Shown here piece after piece: positions 24,997 through 31,105 of a stretch of DNA of 64,000 bases. The notes below the pieces were generated by a model. The model did not search any database. It saw only the letters and a list, made by a program, of their open reading frames with translations, and was not told where the DNA came from. The DNA is from an uncultured bacterium (lineage in GTDB: Bacteria; Patescibacteriota; Minisyncoccia; Phycocordibacterales; PALSA-1337), in NCBI GenBank assembly GCA_963701025.1, contig OY969557.1, forward strand, positions 170,405 to 234,404. Reading direction: 5' to 3'. Both the position numbers and the translations under genes were made by a program. Within the stretch, counting starts at the first letter, position 1, and every line of letters starts with the position of its first letter.

Positions 24997-25121
24997 GCAT
25001 CAAGTATGGCATACAATAGGAGGGAATGGGTTTAAGCGTCCATTTGTCCAAAGGATACCATGTCGCACAATAGAAACTTATGCGTCATTACTCTCCTTTT
25101 ACGATGTTAAATATGAAAATA

Positions 25122-25388
25122 TCAGTTACCAGAATTTAATGAAAAATCTATCAATGAGAGCTGAATTTTATCGTCAAATATGGCGATCTTAAACGATCCG
25201 ACGCCAGGAGTATTGACGATGTTCTTCAGTTCCTCATATTGCCGCTCAGTTACTTTAACCGGATAGGCCTCGCCATCAATGGCTATCTTGAGCTTGAGGG
25301 ATACGCCCTTTTTTCCAGTTTCCTTGAACTCATACGAGTAAGGTGCTTGAGCAAGCAAAAATACACACGGTGTATTTTCAACTTTCAT
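25122..25388 (-). CDS. Small hypothetical protein downstream of the 512-aa nuclease-motif gene
   Basis: 88-aa ORF on the same strand, 178 nt after the stop of the 25567-27105 gene. Confidence 0.3.
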   Translation of the reverse strand: MKVENTPCVFLLAQAPYSYEFKETGKKGVSLKLKIAIDGEAYPVKVTERQYEELKNIVNTPGVGSFKIAIFDDKIQLSLIDFSLNSGN

Positions 25389-25566
25389 GAACGTGATTTA
25401 AAAGAACTTACGTTGCTTATAATTCGACCTACCGGCTCGGAGAACGACTCACGGGCTGATATGTGTAAAGTTTAACAGGAGCGGACAGAAGCACAACTTT
25501 ATTTTCTTGAAACTGTGGATAACTGAAAACCAGCCTGTACACTGAAATTTTGTCAGTACATATGTA

Positions 25567-27105
25567 TTAACCAGCCTTTGATGCTGTTGGTTTATTATCC
25601 TTCCTTGCGTCGATAAGGATGATGTTTTCTTTGCCATTTAGCTTTAATTCTTCCAGAATAACTTTAGCTCTCTCGTGTTCCTCTGAAGTGAAATAAACAA
25701 TCACCCAAATTGATTTCTCTGTACTATTTACTTTCTTATATATCTCCAACTGATTTTGTAGATTCTTTTTGAGCTGTGAACTTTTTGCTAATTTAAATTC
25801 TATTAGTGTCTTATCCTTGTTTCCTCTAGATACGGAATAATCTACGGCACCTCTTCCGTTAGCTGATTCCCGATTTACATCCGAGACGGTACCGTACCAG
25901 ACTAGATAAAAGAGCCGCTGAACATCATCTTCTGTTCGAGGGCATCCATCTTTATCGTATAAATCTTTGTATATATCATTGTTCTCGATACATTTTTTGA
26001 ATGAAATTACTCTTGATAAACTTTCTTCATATGTATCATTTTTTTGATTGTAAAAACCGTTTTCTATTAACCTAGTAATGATATTCTTAAACTTATCGAT
26101 GTAATATTCCTGTAAATCCTCGGTTTTCTTTAGGCTCAATTCAACAGCAATATCACCTTTATCTTCCTTTTGCTTTACATAGTAATCAATAAGAACAGGA
26201 AACTCCTTAATTGTTTGAAAAGCAGCTTTATCTTTTTCAGCCCGAGTAGGCTCTTCTTTTGCAAATTTTCCGTTTTTATCTTTGCGTCTGGCTTGTACGA
26301 GAAGCTTTTGAAAATAATTATTGATCTGTGCTCTCAATTCAGAGTTAGTGATTGCTGTAGGTATTTTTTCAAATTCATCAAATAAATCTTTTCTATTAAT
26401 CCATATATCATTCTTGGTTAATAAATCGATTGGAGTTAATAGAACATAGTCATCAACGTAATGTGGCAACGTATATTCCATACTCATCCAGGTCTCCGTA
26501 TCATAATTAAATTTTGCTTTTTTAACTTTTACTATTTTTGTTAATGATGGGTCGATATTTTTATGCGTAAATGCTTGAGTATATTCAAGTAGAAATCCTT
26601 TAATTAAATTGGTAGTGAAATCACTTATATTATCCTTTCCAACACCGTCATGGACAAGAGTGATCTTTTCAAGATGTATACCTTCAGTTATTTTCTCATT
26701 ACCAAAATTATTAAGGACCTTGCCAAAACTTTCATTTAAGGAAATTGCAAATTTCTTTCCCAGCCCCCTTCCTTTGTTTCCCAGAACAGAATAACCAAAC
26801 CAGTTCTGTTCAACTTCAGGAAATCTGTATAGATTATCTATGAGACCCTGAGGCAAATTACCATCAAGACTATCTGTTTTATTTTTTAAAAATACCAGAT
26901 ACTTAATAATTTCAGCATGCAATATTTTGTACTGTTCTTTTTCACTGTTAAAAAGTAAAAATGGATCAACAAATAATGGAACATCAGATACTAGCGATGT
27001 GTTGAATGCACCATATTTTTTTAGTGCTGTGGCTGATACTTTAAAAAAATCAGCGAAAGATAGATTATTTGGAGTATTCATTATTATTTGTCGATACTCT
27101 AACAC
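25567..27105 (-). CDS. Large hypothetical protein with C-terminal PD-(D/E)xK nuclease-like motif
   Basis: 'GRGAVDYSVSRGNKDKTLIEFKLAKSS' fits D...E-x-K (Mrr-cat-like). The ~400-aa N-terminal region is unrecognised. The likely start is 'MNTPNNLSF' at 27081. Confidence 0.5.
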   Translation of the reverse strand: MLEYRQIIMNTPNNLSFADFFKVSATALKKYGAFNTSLVSDVPLFVDPFLLFNSEKEQYKILHAEIIKYLVFLKNKTDSLDGNLPQGLIDNLYRFPEVEQNWFGYSVLGNKGRGLGKKFAISLNESFGKVLNNFGNEKITEGIHLEKITLVHDGVGKDNISDFTTNLIKGFLLEYTQAFTHKNIDPSLTKIVKVKKAKFNYDTETWMSMEYTLPHYVDDYVLLTPIDLLTKNDIWINRKDLFDEFEKIPTAITNSELRAQINNYFQKLLVQARRKDKNGKFAKEEPTRAEKDKAAFQTIKEFPVLIDYYVKQKEDKGDIAVELSLKKTEDLQEYYIDKFKNIITRLIENGFYNQKNDTYEESLSRVISFKKCIENNDIYKDLYDKDGCPRTEDDVQRLFYLVWYGTVSDVNRESANGRGAVDYSVSRGNKDKTLIEFKLAKSSQLKKNLQNQLEIYKKVNSTEKSIWVIVYFTSEEHERAKVILEELKLNGKENIILIDARKDNKPTASKAG

Positions 27106-27200
27106 TTTTCCGATACTAAGTAAATATCACTTTTTCAGATTATCAAAATCCTTTCTATTTGAAGATAAATGTTGTATAGTAGGAAATACGATATAAATTT

Positions 27201-28661
27201 ATGGAAACCTTTCGATTGGAATTTTGGGCAGACAGCTTTCACGAAGGAAACTGGGCATGCGAAGAATTATCTAAATTTTTTAAATTAAAGGATGTGCACT
27301 ACGAACAGGGATTCATACCTGTTTTCTTATTCGAGATAGCTTATAAAAATAGTCTGATCTCTGTTCTTGGTTCATATAAAAACTGGTCTCCATTACCTAA
27401 GCCCATCGCAAATCTTCTTGAATGGGGTAAACCATCTAATAGTATTTAATCCTGAAAAGCAGAAAATAATTTTAGCTGTAGAAGAAACGGCGGCTGTTCC
27501 AACCGGAAATCAAGCTCTACAACGTTGCGAAAGAATTTACGGAAGTCTTAGAATGAACATACCTTTTTGGTATTTGTTAGGGGAATTCGGTCTACATGTT
27601 GACGGCGGAATTAGAAGAGATTCAATTTGGCCAACAGTTTTAGGAATCAAATTAAGCTGTATAAAGAGAACACCGTGTATAGTACTACACTATTCTGATC
27701 AAAGTCATCCCGAAGATTATTCAATAGGCGGGGGTGTTAGTTCACTATATGCAGCATTATCAGTTAAGATTGGAATACATTTTGGCACGAAAACTTTATC
27801 TGACATAATGCCAATACTTACAGAACAATATGCGTACATGATTAAATTTATTGAGAGTCAAGGTGCAAATGTTGTAAATTTTATTCCAAATAAAGAACAG
27901 CTATACGAAAAAAATATTCCAAAGAAATCAGTAAGCTAGTAACCTCAGATATACCTATAAACCTCACTTCATTAGACTTTTTCAATTGGGGAACAACCGA
28001 TGAATTACCAGTAGAAATTTATGAGAAGATTAAGCCAGGAGGAATAATAAAGCATGATGCCTTTATCAGTGAACTCGAAGAGATAGTCAAGAAAAGGCAT
28101 GCTTACACACTATCCGGCAACGCCGGGTCACGACCTCAAAATAAGGAAGACGTAGAAATCTGGATAAGAGAGCAACGGGACTTATTTTCAACAAATATAA
28201 TTTCTGATGTAAAATTCAGTCTTAATATTAATGATTTTCCTGAGAGTATTTCTGGGCGGTTACATGTAACGACAGCGAAAAATGTTTTCTACCTTGTAGA
28301 TTCCTGGACTCACATCAAAGATGCTCTTAAGAAAGCGTTTCCACGCCTCCAAAAAATACAACTCGAATATCGGATGCCAGCTTTTGTATATATTTCTAAT
28401 AGTCTTAAGCCGGGTAGAATATTTGGTGATCCGTTTACAGGACAGCTTTCTGCTTTCGCTAATATTTTCACAAAAAATGTTGAGGGAAAGAAGACGAGAA
28501 TTTCCATAGCTTACTACCCACATCAAGTTCATACGCAACTTTTTGATAGTGACCTAAAATTTCGTAGGAATAAGGGGATCATACTTATGAGAGAATTACT
28601 AGATTACGCGATGTTTCAGGGAGGAGTAATTATTAATATGCAGACCGGACAAATTATATGA
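27201..28661 (+). pseudogene. Unknown gene(s) read in alternating frames (frame 0 to +1 near 27400, back near 27910 at an A7 run)
   Basis: Three long stop-free segments in AT-rich DNA overlap end to end (27201-27449, 27367-27939, 27894-28661). One has 'HVDGGIRRD', a weak DGQHR/ParB-like resemblance. Confidence 0.3.
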
Positions 28662-28698
28662 TCAAATACTCATTTAACATTAACGGGGAAATTGCTCG

Positions 28699-29240
28699 AT
28701 GGGTCACAGAAGTATATATAAGAAACGAGCAAAAAACGGTTGGTGGGTAGCGTTCACTAACCCAATCGCGGGTCCTTGGAAAAAGATAACGGCGTTAGAT
28801 GGTACTGGTCTTCCGGTTGAAATCTACCGGTTTGAGAGAGAAGGGGAACGTCCGGATCTAATTTTAGTAAATGATATCTTCAAGCTGGTAATGATAGTGA
28901 AGCAAAAGATTATTATCATAAACTACTCGTGCCTACACAGATGACAAAATCTGTAAGAGTCATTGAGGATATTTCAACAATCTTGACTAAGTGCCCCAAT
29001 AAGAATTGGGAAAATAGAATCAACTATAAAATTCTCGCATCATTTCTTTGGTATTCTGAAAATCAACAGAAATTATTATCAGAAAATCTTTTGGTTAGAG
29101 AAGCCTTCAAAAAGTACTCAAAAAAAGATGCTGACGAATTACTCAATATTGTTATTTCAAAAGACAAATCGGGAAATCTTAGCAATAATTTTATCTATAA
29201 ACATACTATAAGTCAGGATTTGGCATTACTTTCTAAATAA
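28699..29240 (+). CDS. Two overlapping small ORFs (81 and 103 aa), possibly one frameshifted gene
   Basis: 28699-28944 and 28929-29240 overlap by 16 nt in different frames. Confidence 0.2.
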
Positions 29241-29831
29241 CGTCTTAGTTTCATTTAGCACCTGTAAAAAACAGAAATTCTTATCAAATAAGACCTTTCC
29301 ATTGAGTATCGATTTAACTTCAGATAATAATGGTGAGCCAATATTATCAGTTCCTTCTAGGACTTTTTCATAAAAGTTCTGAATAGTTTTTTTCCCGTCG
29401 CTTAACTCTGTCTCAGCTATATGTGTTATTACCTTATCAATACTGTGTTCATGTAAGATATTTTCATCATGTAGTTCTGGACGCAGATAATAATACTCAC
29501 GATCCTCAGTCGCAATAGGTTTAATTATTTCCTCAAACTTTTCTAGAAGCTGCAAATCCATATTCTCATTTAATATTGAAAGAATGATGATTCTCTGAAT
29601 TAGATTCTTTGGAGCCTTACCATTCCTACTAAACAACACGTCTTTTACCTTTTTAGTTAGAAAAAATTGATTATGTTTAGACTTTTTAATATTTTTTGTC
29701 TTCTTGAAAACACAATAATAATCACCAACATAACTAGTATTTGATGCCATTTGTGATTTTGATGATACAACTGCAGGAATTTGATATTTCGCTTCAATAC
29801 ACAGGAATGAAGATTCCTCAAATGATCCCAA
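29226..29831 (-). CDS. Candidate restriction endonuclease partner of the methyltransferases
   Basis: Last gene of the minus-strand M-M-R operon. N-terminal 'FEESSFLCIEAKYQ' looks like the E...ExK PD-(D/E)xK core. Confidence 0.3.
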   Translation of the reverse strand: MGSFEESSFLCIEAKYQIPAVVSSKSQMASNTSYVGDYYCVFKKTKNIKKSKHNQFFLTKKVKDVLFSRNGKAPKNLIQRIIILSILNENMDLQLLEKFEEIIKPIATEDREYYYLRPELHDENILHEHSIDKVITHIAETELSDGKKTIQNFYEKVLEGTDNIGSPLLSEVKSILNGKVLFDKNFCFLQVLNETKTLFRK

Positions 29832-29847
29832 GACAATTCTCCAAGCT

Positions 29848-31105
29848 CTAGGAATAGAGGTTGTTAAATGTCATGATAAGTTTACCGCCATTCTTTAACT
29901 TCTTTTGAAATAATAAGATGACCGATTTTATGTCTTTTTGATATTTATCCCACGAGCTCACATGTTCTTTTCTATCTGACACTATAATTTCATCCTTATA
30001 ATTAATTTCTTGCCTCAGGAATCCATTCCATATTGCAGAAAATTCAACATACGGCACGTTATCACCATATGGAGGGTCAAAAAATATCCCATCAACACTA
30101 TTATCATCAATCTTATCTAATCCTGCATGAGCCGCGATATTTTCAATTTTAGTTGAAGAAGAAATATTCTTATACTGTCGATGCAAAGATTCAAGACCTT
30201 TCAAAAATTTCTTGTGTCTAGCTTCAAGATGGATAATCGGATTAGTCTCCAGATGAAGGGGAGCAATCCAAAAACCTGGAACTGTCCAAGCGGGTCCACC
30301 CGTACTTAAGTTATTTCTATAGGGGATTAGCCTTGATGATTGTGCTACTGAAGAAGTTAGCATCAAGAGCAGGGCATTTCTAATAGATTTATTTTGTATT
30401 TTATTTACCTCATTAAATAACTCAACAAATATATAGAAAGTACGTGTTGTAAACAAATCTGATAATTTCATACCAGGAAAAGCAAGAATTCGTCTGTTCG
30501 GGATCAAATTTTTATCAAATTTAGGAACAGTAATCTCACTAAGAAGTTTTTCTTGTTGGCCTAGCCATTTTTTGTCAGTATATTCGAGATTATCTCTATC
30601 ATAAATCTTTACAACTCGAGTGCCACTGAATTTCTCAAAGTTAAACGAAAGTCTATTGTTACAATTCCGACAATGATATCTATTTCCTATTTTTGTAGAT
30701 CTGCTTATCGAACCATCAGCCCCGCATTCTGAACATTTAGATCCATTTCATGAACTAAGTATCGAATTTCCTTGTTATCAACAGTGAACAGATTTCTATA
30801 AGAATCAGCAAGTCGAAGTATTTTCTTGGCTTCTTTAGAAAAAACCTCAAACTGAGGCGGATTAGTTGTGACTTCTGATAGAAGTGCTGCTATAGGATTT
30901 ATATCATAACCAATTCCATCTATGTTATTCTTTTTTGCTTCTGCCAGAAAGACCCCACTACCACAAAACGGGTCAACCAACAATGAGTCTTATTAAAATA
31001 TGATCTTATATATTGCTGCAAAATATTTGACGGTTTTCTTGCCCAATACTTGTGAATTAAGTACTCATTCGGATGCGTCTGTGCCATTAGTGCTTTTGAT
31101 TTCAT
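29848..31105 (-). pseudogene. Dam-like (alpha-class) N6-adenine DNA methyltransferase, frameshifted
   Basis: 'HKYWARKPSNI' matches Dam 'LKWAGGK', 'LVDPFCGSGVF' is motif I, 'DGIGYDINP', and 'FFDPPY' is motif IV. The pieces lie in three frames (30920-31105, 30705-30983, 29848-30720), with a C-x2-C...C-x2-C ribbon between. Confidence 0.65.

Follow-up and report, generated by a model that had tools for sequence, protein, structure and literature searches.

Shedu (SduA, DUF4263) is a single protein with a C-terminal PD-(D/E)xK nuclease whose activity an N-terminal domain is proposed to gate, and among Shedu proteins the nuclease is constant while the N-terminal domains vary. CARF/SAVED fusions (Can2, Cap4, TIR-SAVED, SAVED-CHAT) join a constant ligand-sensing module to interchangeable nuclease, TIR or protease effectors, and Avs and bacterial NLR-like STAND proteins are single-protein sensors with swappable nuclease, TIR, SIR2 and caspase-like effectors. 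Here we describe a gene that shares features with each of these, on the minus strand of a 64,000-nucleotide stretch of DNA from an uncultured bacterium of the Patescibacteriota (contig OY969557.1, positions 170,405 to 234,404; hereafter the window). Its closest described counterpart is DS-20, a defence gene of Escherichia coli, and we consider it probable that the window gene codes for an anti-phage immune nuclease of the DS-20 family that acts as a single protein, carried as cargo of a 14.3-kb element beside an unrelated restriction-modification (R-M) system.

DS-20 (WP_032291790.1; working id PDX1) appears in the published tables as a single gene that is defensive and replicated, and is listed as a 'Predicted novel defense gene' (Table S6 of DeWeirdt, Mahoney & Laub, Science 2026; PMC13092281). 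It was tested on a plasmid in MG1655, where the recorded log10(EV PFU/system PFU), that is, plaque-forming units with empty vector over those with the system, was 1.70 for Bas3, 1.54 for SECphi27, 1.52 for T3, 1.48 for Bas1, 1.34 for Bas19, 1.26 for T7 and 1.15 for Bas11; values for Bas67, Candy, lambda and Bas25 are 1.0 or lower and carry a 'Y' flag, and plaque-size differences are mentioned in the legend to Fig. 3 (PMC13092281). The same record gives an HHpred assignment of PDDEXK (DpnII-MboI) at residues 333-474 only (probability 0.97) and a best match among known defence proteins to LmuA_effector_PDDEXK (followed by the values 0.17 and 95.6), and its main text has nothing specific on DS-20, no DS-20 mutants and no mechanism (PMC13092281).

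BLASTP aligns WP_032291790.1 with the window protein over 496 residues at 48% identity (E=4e-159), and every motif is kept in the alignment: the D, the ExK, the Q...Y and the invariant residues of the N-terminal module (N-module). The features that characterize the DS-20 family, namely full-length homology, a two-part architecture (~330-380 unannotated N-terminal residues followed by a PDDEXK domain with its catalytic residues intact) and a single gene, are all present in the window protein at the level of sequence, and both genes are borne on mobile genetic elements, although the E. coli gene sits in a P4-like satellite and the window gene in a low-GC integrative element, and 52% of positions differ. 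By this alignment the window protein is a full-length orthologue of a defensive E. coli protein. An earlier note, written from the letters of the window alone, had proposed a single-gene or two-gene anti-phage nuclease at this position; the single-gene form of that proposal is supported by the defensive record of the orthologue, as published, and by the lack of a conserved partner gene described below.

The minus-strand open reading frame (ORF) occupies 25567-27105 and, read from a GTG at 27105, encodes the 512 amino acids that the earlier note had reported. The N-termini of homologues start a few residues ahead of a conserved 'FSDFF', and because homologues begin just before this motif we favour the downstream ATG at 27081. 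A database copy (P0001) is 100% identical, has 504 residues and starts at the same ATG. Residues are numbered here in the 504-residue form; 8 is added for the 512-residue form. More than 5,000 homologues were found at E<=1e-3 in a word-indexed protein search, an exhaustive search gave 2,086 representative clusters at E<=1e-3, 243 of them at E<=1e-30, and the translation is identical in an independent assembly (contig L008/L009). Because of these thousands of homologues and the identical translation, the frame is not a chance one: it is a real gene, intact in two independent assemblies. Its GC content is 32%, as compared to 37.8% for the surrounding island and 51-52% for the flanks; a scan for promoters and terminators returned no more sites than shuffled sequence.

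The C-terminal domain is, by sequence and model, a PD-(D/E)xK nuclease with a complete predicted catalytic set, an assignment that we make because of three lines of evidence: firstly, the D/ExK/QxxxY residues are invariant; secondly, the modelled core has the canonical topology; thirdly, the best fold matches are to PD-(D/E)xK enzymes. E384, E405, D414, E428, K430, Q444 and Y448 are invariant in 56 homologues, and D414, E428 and K430 are also intact in 65 of 65 canonical representatives, so the D...ExK core that the earlier note had picked out in the peptide GRGAVDYSVSRGNKDKTLIEFKLAKSS (window 25777-25857) is upheld, as is the conservation of its catalytic residues among homologues. The AlphaFold2 (AF2) model of the full-length protein has a mean pLDDT (predicted local distance difference test) of 83 and a pTM (predicted template modelling score) of 0.80, the latter indicating that the relative arrangement of the domains is predicted with confidence. 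DSSP places helices (H) and strands (E) at H384-395, E401-407, E412-418, E424-431, H437-451 and E456-463, so that strand 412-418 carries D414 and strand 424-431 carries E428-x-K430, with helices 384-395 and 437-451 flanking them; this predicted alpha-beta-beta-beta-alpha-beta core is the canonical PD-(D/E)xK arrangement. Folds were compared with Foldseek against PDB and BFVD. The best PDB matches were Can2, NucS/EndoMS, PspGI and PaqCI (weak E values of 0.2-0.5 over ~100 residues), and the best BFVD matches were Mrr/REase (restriction endonuclease) domains, with probabilities up to 1.0 but a likewise weak E of 4e-3.

The label 'Mrr-cat-type', which the earlier note had attached to this core, finds no specific support at the level of families. 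Neither Mrr_cat (PF04471) nor Mrr_N is matched by the window protein in Pfam, and neither is among the families recorded for the 56 members, whose weak Pfam matches are instead to DpnII-MboI (8/56) and PDDEXK_9 (5/56), with a best E of 8e-5; the window protein itself matches DpnII-MboI weakly (E=0.005). Mrr and other type IV enzymes do resemble the window protein in having a PD-(D/E)xK domain and no cognate methyltransferase (MTase), and one BFVD match is annotated as Mrr (E=0.038), but the family lacks the Mrr_N winged helix as well as any Mrr_cat match, and has a conserved Q444-x3-Y448 motif C-terminal to the ExK. A QxxxY after the ExK is a feature of RecB/Cas4-like members, and provides a lead. 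At the extreme C-terminus lies a conserved tail, IDARxDNKPSAS (window 25570-25611, residues 491-504, with D491, R493, K497 and S501), which is invariant in canonical nuclease forms and missing from the effector-swapped forms described below.

The N-terminal ~380 residues matched no characterized family in Pfam, NCBIfam or PHROGs scans; for the protein as a whole, PHROG 30194, a family whose function is not known, was the only PHROGs match. Against PDB sequences, a single-sequence search gave chance matches to eIF2B at E~1, and a profile search gave zero matches. A separate model of residues 1-378 (pLDDT 82, pTM 0.81) likewise found no meaningful match in a PDB fold search (best E=1.4, probability 0.03, TM-score ~0.1), so that this region matches neither a restriction-enzyme nor a housekeeping family in Pfam, NCBIfam, PDB-profile or Foldseek comparisons, and its N-module has a modelled fold without a solved structural relative. 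The earlier note had called the region unrecognized, and this stands in the sense that no characterized family or fold was found; the region is nevertheless catalogued, as Pfam DUF8370 and as the N-terminal half of the PADLOC profile PDC-M36A. Precomputed matches to PF28123 (DUF8370) and PF28130 (DUF8371) are present on the identical database copy and on all 120 of its listed homologues. No mention of PDC-M36, PF28123/PF28130, DUF8370/8371 or three RefSeq accessions was found in the main texts of the literature.

PDC-M36 is an untested 'guilt-by-embedding' candidate of three genes, FAM_01399>>FAM_00303>>FAM_00303 (Payne et al., bioRxiv 10.1101/2024.01.29.577857). Its A component shares the N-terminal module of ~250 residues with the window protein: the PDC-M36A profile matches residues 19-264 of the 512-residue form (E=6e-22). 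This is a partial match rather than a full-length one, covering profile positions 10-246 of 457, and the five scanned neighbour proteins (the 88-residue ORF, the 488- and 194-residue proteins and two MTases) include no counterpart of the other PDC-M36 components. We therefore rejected PDC-M36 as the identity of the locus, since the match is partial and the FAM_00303 genes were not found among those five neighbours.

Nine polar residues of the N-module are near-invariant (D33, D39, H55, E89, N102, H136, E138, D150 and D154), and in the AF2 model a flexible Gly-rich loop (residues 91-104, pLDDT <50) lies beside this polar cluster. Mean pairwise identity is 0.62 for the N-module core, equal to that of the nuclease (0.62), and 0.48 for the helical linker between them, which holds a 32-residue helix (309-340 in the AF2 model). 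To compare architectures, we aligned 105 full-length representatives and classed them by length and by the D-E-K triad. The canonical class (<=560 residues, n=65) has the triad intact, and the nine N-module residues are identical in 576 of 585 cases. In the long class (>560 residues, n=15) and the short class (446-559 residues, n=24) the triad is lost, and the nine residues are kept in 132/132 and 206/211 cases, respectively; one further long form (P0168) keeps the triad but has lost Q444 and Y448, and has all nine N-module residues. Thus all but one of the 16 long effector-fusion forms have a decayed nuclease triad.

The extra C-terminal domains of these long forms are TIR or TIR/SEFIR in eight, CHAT in three and caspase in two (P0139 and P0145, one of which also has an EAD7 adaptor domain), with a SIR2-like tail (matching FAM118B at 3e-20 and ThsA at 1e-3), a PNP/MTA-SAH nucleosidase tail (7e-11) and a tail with no assigned domain in one each. 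All of the assigned tails are classic immune effectors. We read the nuclease decay as having followed takeover by another effector, and the sequences as a whole point to an N-terminal sensor or regulator that stays constant while the effector is exchanged. From this pattern of a constant module with a replaceable output it follows that the nuclease would be the effector in canonical forms, the window protein included.

Two loci elsewhere in the family place effector-type genes next to family members. In a defence islet (L094, 3320-7956), a Shedu gene (SduA_C) is followed by a gene for a 453-residue DUF8370-only protein and then by one for a 513-residue PNP_UDP_1 protein; the DUF8370-only short form has a decayed triad, the PNP_UDP_1 gene is co-oriented 53 bp downstream, and another relative (P0234) has this PNP domain as a direct fusion to its N-module, which suggests an effector supplied in trans. 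Another short decayed form has as its sole candidate neighbour a housekeeping ribonucleotide reductase upstream, and the evidence for in-trans partners of the short decayed forms is anecdotal. At a second locus (L003, 6001-10859), a canonical family member is followed closely downstream by genes for a DUF900 hydrolase and a caspase (Peptidase_C14), which, together with the caspase fusions, hints at an occasional coupling of the family to caspase-type effectors.

This arrangement sets the family apart from the systems that it resembles. Shedu matches it in being a single protein with a C-terminal PD-(D/E)xK nuclease, but in the DS-20 family it is the N-module that is constant and the C-terminal effector that varies, and the PADLOC Shedu models do not match the window protein. 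Compared with Avs and STAND proteins, DS-20-family proteins have no P-loop NTPase or repeat sensor, are far smaller (~490 residues) and carry the effector at the C-terminus. From the likeness to CARF/SAVED fusions comes a rival explanation, in which the N-module would be a receptor for a diffusible second messenger and the protein would serve as the effector of a signalling system with its synthase gene at another site. The fused effectors (nuclease, TIR, CHAT/caspase, PNP) do mirror the CARF/SAVED repertoire, an invariant polar pocket with a Gly-rich loop would suit a nucleotide ligand, and Can2, a CARF protein with a PD-(D/E)xK domain, is the nominal top PDB match. However, the alignment to Can2 is poor (TM-score 0.14, root-mean-square deviation 16.7 A), the N-module alone matches no CARF/SAVED fold (best E=1.4), neither a cyclase nor any other conserved partner is linked across 80 loci, and the E. 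coli gene alone in MG1655 is flagged as defensive in the published tables. We regard a second-messenger receptor as quite improbable.

In the mechanism that we favour, proposed from the architecture, the N-module (approximately residues 1-265) would be the constant sensor or regulator and the C-terminal domain the effector. The N-module probably binds an invariant ligand, for example a metal together with a nucleic-acid or nucleotide feature made during infection, or it may itself be catalytic; recognition of a variable phage protein seems unlikely. We favour an invariant ligand or an enzymatic role because across phyla the N-module is conserved to the same degree as the nuclease and has an invariant acidic/His/Asn cluster by a Gly-rich loop. 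Ligand binding could then relieve autoinhibition, or drive oligomerization, through the long helical linker and so switch on the nuclease, a step that is speculative, and the active nuclease would cut either phage DNA alone (direct restriction) or all DNA (abortive infection). Assembly is the usual mode of activation of TIR, SIR2, caspase and CHAT effectors. By analogy with the non-DNA effectors of the relatives, we lean towards abortive infection.

A variant of this explanation, differing in target and outcome, is that the protein is a direct, non-abortive restriction enzyme of a type IV-like kind, whose N-module would read some feature peculiar to phage DNA, for instance base modification, an unusual structure or free ends, so that the nuclease would cut the invader alone. 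Several observations are in keeping with it: the family often lies in or beside type I/III R-M loci (HsdS adjacent in 4/5 cases, Res in 4/4), it has no cognate MTase of its own, and DS-20 gives modest protection against phages of several families according to the published values. In the AF2 model of the N-module, two helices (139-143 and 149-159) joined by a G-V-G hairpin resemble the helix-hairpin-helix (HhH) pattern, which serves as a lead only. Against direct restriction, relatives swap the nuclease for TIR, SIR2, PNP, caspase and CHAT domains, with NAD+, nucleotides or proteins rather than invader DNA as targets, which fits abortive signalling better; moreover, no Pfam HhH or reader domain is present in the 56 members and Foldseek returned no DNA-binding fold. 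Direct restriction is, in our judgement, rather unlikely. The HhH reading of residues 139-159 was set aside along with HD, HEPN and second-nuclease readings of the N-module, each of which found no Pfam or Foldseek support.

The DS-20 family is widespread, with relatives encoded in at least 559 species genomes from Bacillota, Actinomycetota, Acidobacteriota, Pseudomonadota, Chloroflexota, Verrucomicrobiota, Nitrospirota, Myxococcota and several Patescibacteria, the last of which include several close homologues of the window protein. To survey gene neighbourhoods, we took 80 loci of different species, all 46-53% identical to the query, and grouped into families the ORFs lying up to 5 kb to either side. 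No neighbour family is present in more than 8 of the 80 loci, and 621 of 663 neighbour clusters are confined to one locus; the recurrent ones are serine recombinases (8), HsdM (7), tyrosine integrases (6), HsdR (6), HsdS (5), type III Res (4), AAA_13 (4) and type III Mod (3). R-M neighbours of type I/III were found in 14/80 loci and recombinases in 13/80, and an MTase neighbour is missing from most. With 8 loci as the maximum for any neighbour family, the window gene is, as judged from gene content, a stand-alone gene with no conserved partner. On plasmids, copies appear as a lone 'hypothetical protein' amid transposases, toxin-antitoxin modules and integrases. The family is not typically phage-borne, since tblastn gave 0 matches in 50,697 isolate phage genomes and only 11 IMG/VR contigs carry it.

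Of 5,426 complete E. coli genomes searched at the DNA level with a Pseudomonas homologue, 17 have a relative, and the three loci inspected (3/3) have the layout tRNA-Leu, integrase, WP_032291790.1 and psu of a P4-like satellite; in strain RM9387 (L110, 7006-8469) DS-20 is the sole gene between int and psu, and likewise in the other two (L111 and L112). The psu-int interval of P4-like satellites is a reservoir of anti-phage systems, and WP_032291790.1 has 18 entries there as 'hypothetical' in Table S1, outside the tested set (Rousset et al. 2022, PMC9122126). The P4-hotspot systems Crouga, Bandua, Aernus, Toga, Reve and Hailong (PMC13586616) were also considered and rejected as counterparts; their architectures, compared by published description only, differ.

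The two-gene form of the earlier proposal involves the small ORF encoded downstream on the same strand, and would make the 88-residue product a regulator or antitoxin of the nuclease, within a system of two genes or a toxin-antitoxin pair. Both genes have the same orientation, are separated by 178 bp and are present in the second assembly of the element. However, the 88-residue family comprises four clusters among 5.8 billion proteins, a homologue adjoins a type IV secretion system coupling protein with no DUF8370 gene nearby, the closest homologue of the window protein has no such ORF downstream, no neighbour is conserved in the 80 loci and DS-20 is recorded as a single-gene unit in the published tables. 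The 88-residue protein has no match in Pfam, PADLOC, NCBIfam or PHROGs. We give such a pairing next to no credence, and the two-gene alternative was dropped.

The remaining features of the locus are collected with those of the gene in the table. The earlier note's description of the setting, a small ORF downstream with an R-M cassette and a prophage nearby, was borne out, with the integrase/Rep/Zot-like block (33057-37508) being an inovirus- or plasmid-like module.

Table. Coordinates of the DS-20-family gene, its predicted domains and neighbouring features in the 64-kb window.
Feature	Position	Strand	Remarks
DS-20-family gene	25567..27081	-	504 aa from ATG at 27081; stop codon 25567-25569
N-terminal core module, DUF8370 / N-half of PDC-M36A	26287..27081	-	residues 1-265
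Helical linker region	25942..26286	-	residues 266-380; AF2 secondary structure; most variable part
Predicted PD-(D/E)xK nuclease domain, DUF8371 region	25570..25941	-	residues 381-504; invariant columns, model topology, Foldseek
Predicted catalytic codons	within 25792..25842	-	D414 25840-25842, E428 25798-25800, K430 25792-25794; coordinates verified
88-aa downstream ORF	25122..25388	-	neighbour, not functional partner of family
Low-GC integrative element, 14.3 kb	25059..39412	.	direct repeat at both ends, own contig elsewhere, GC
Type II R-M cassette	27201..32067	.	adjoins DS-20-family gene, independent of it
Tyrosine integrase	33057-33923		part of 14.3-kb element
Rolling-circle Rep ORF2/G2P	34344-35045		part of 14.3-kb element
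Zot-like ATPase	35293-35811		part of 14.3-kb element
468-aa ORF	36102-37508		part of 14.3-kb element

The element is bounded by a direct repeat, ATGTCGCACAATA, at 25059-25072 and 39399-39412, and the DS-20-family gene is its leftmost cargo. In another sample the element was assembled on its own, as a 14,348-bp contig that covers window 25070-39403 and has its two ends within the two repeat copies, which suggests that occupied and empty or circular forms of the element coexist in that sample. In a search for an integration target, ARAGORN found no tRNA gene anywhere in the 64-kb window, which comes from a contig of only 876 kb. Between the integrase and Rep genes, a phased array of ~9 units of an 11-bp repeat (TGATAAAnnnn, 33987-34085) looks, by its sequence, like an iteron-type origin or binding array.

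The R-M cassette encodes a 488-residue nicking-endonuclease homologue and a 194-residue ORF on the plus strand and two MTases of 413 and 626 residues on the minus strand; on the corresponding genes of L009, PADLOC gave REase_II at E=5e-135 and MTase_II at E=4e-104 and 8e-135, and Pfam gave N6_N4_Mtase. These genes are intact in two other assemblies (L009, 7066-12217) and frameshift-fragmented in the window, where the cassette has 14 single-base indels relative to L009, 13 of them deletions. The window differs from L009 by 44 indels altogether, clustered in the cassette and in 36553-39252, with 4 of the 44 in homopolymers and 0 in 25070-27349 and 32878-36552; the DS-20-family gene has 0 where ~7 would be expected at the element-wide rate. 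The indels of the cassette may be assembly errors or real decay.

Proximity to these genes raises a further explanation, namely that the DS-20-family protein belongs to the R-M cassette or to the biology of the element, as an alternative restriction subunit or as a replication or recombination nuclease. The gene does lie ~100 bp from the REase gene, divergent to it, and the element has an integrase and a rolling-circle Rep. But the cassette has a REase homologue of its own in addition to its two MTases, the family is found in hundreds of species with unrelated neighbours, and it also occurs on plasmids, in transposon-rich regions and in P4 satellites that lack these element genes; we consider this explanation very improbable. 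The narrower candidate, a REase for the adjacent type II MTases, was rejected because of the cassette's own REase homologue and because an MTase neighbour is missing from the majority of the 80 loci.

Taken as an immune nuclease of the DS-20 family, the window gene would be a further copy of a defence system validated in 2026 and not a new kind of system, and the window shows such a system and an R-M cassette moving together on a small integrative element, with borders definable at single-base resolution. What goes beyond the DS-20 record, as published, is that the nuclease appears to be one of at least six interchangeable effectors on a constant N-module. The N-module is therefore the part to study, as a new sensor fold or a new enzyme, because it combines nine invariant acidic/His/Asn residues with no solved structural relative, and the family can be tested directly through its E. 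coli orthologue, for which a panel of phages is known. We tentatively suggest, as a possibility that we hold with somewhat less than even confidence, that DUF8370 is a new fold, a metal-dependent catalytic or ligand-binding sensor of infection that defines a large, phylum-spanning modular immune family with nuclease, TIR, SEFIR, SIR2, CHAT, caspase and PNP effectors. If this is true, the DUF8370 module would represent a new class of bacterial pattern-recognition domain, of which DS-20 is the only tested member.

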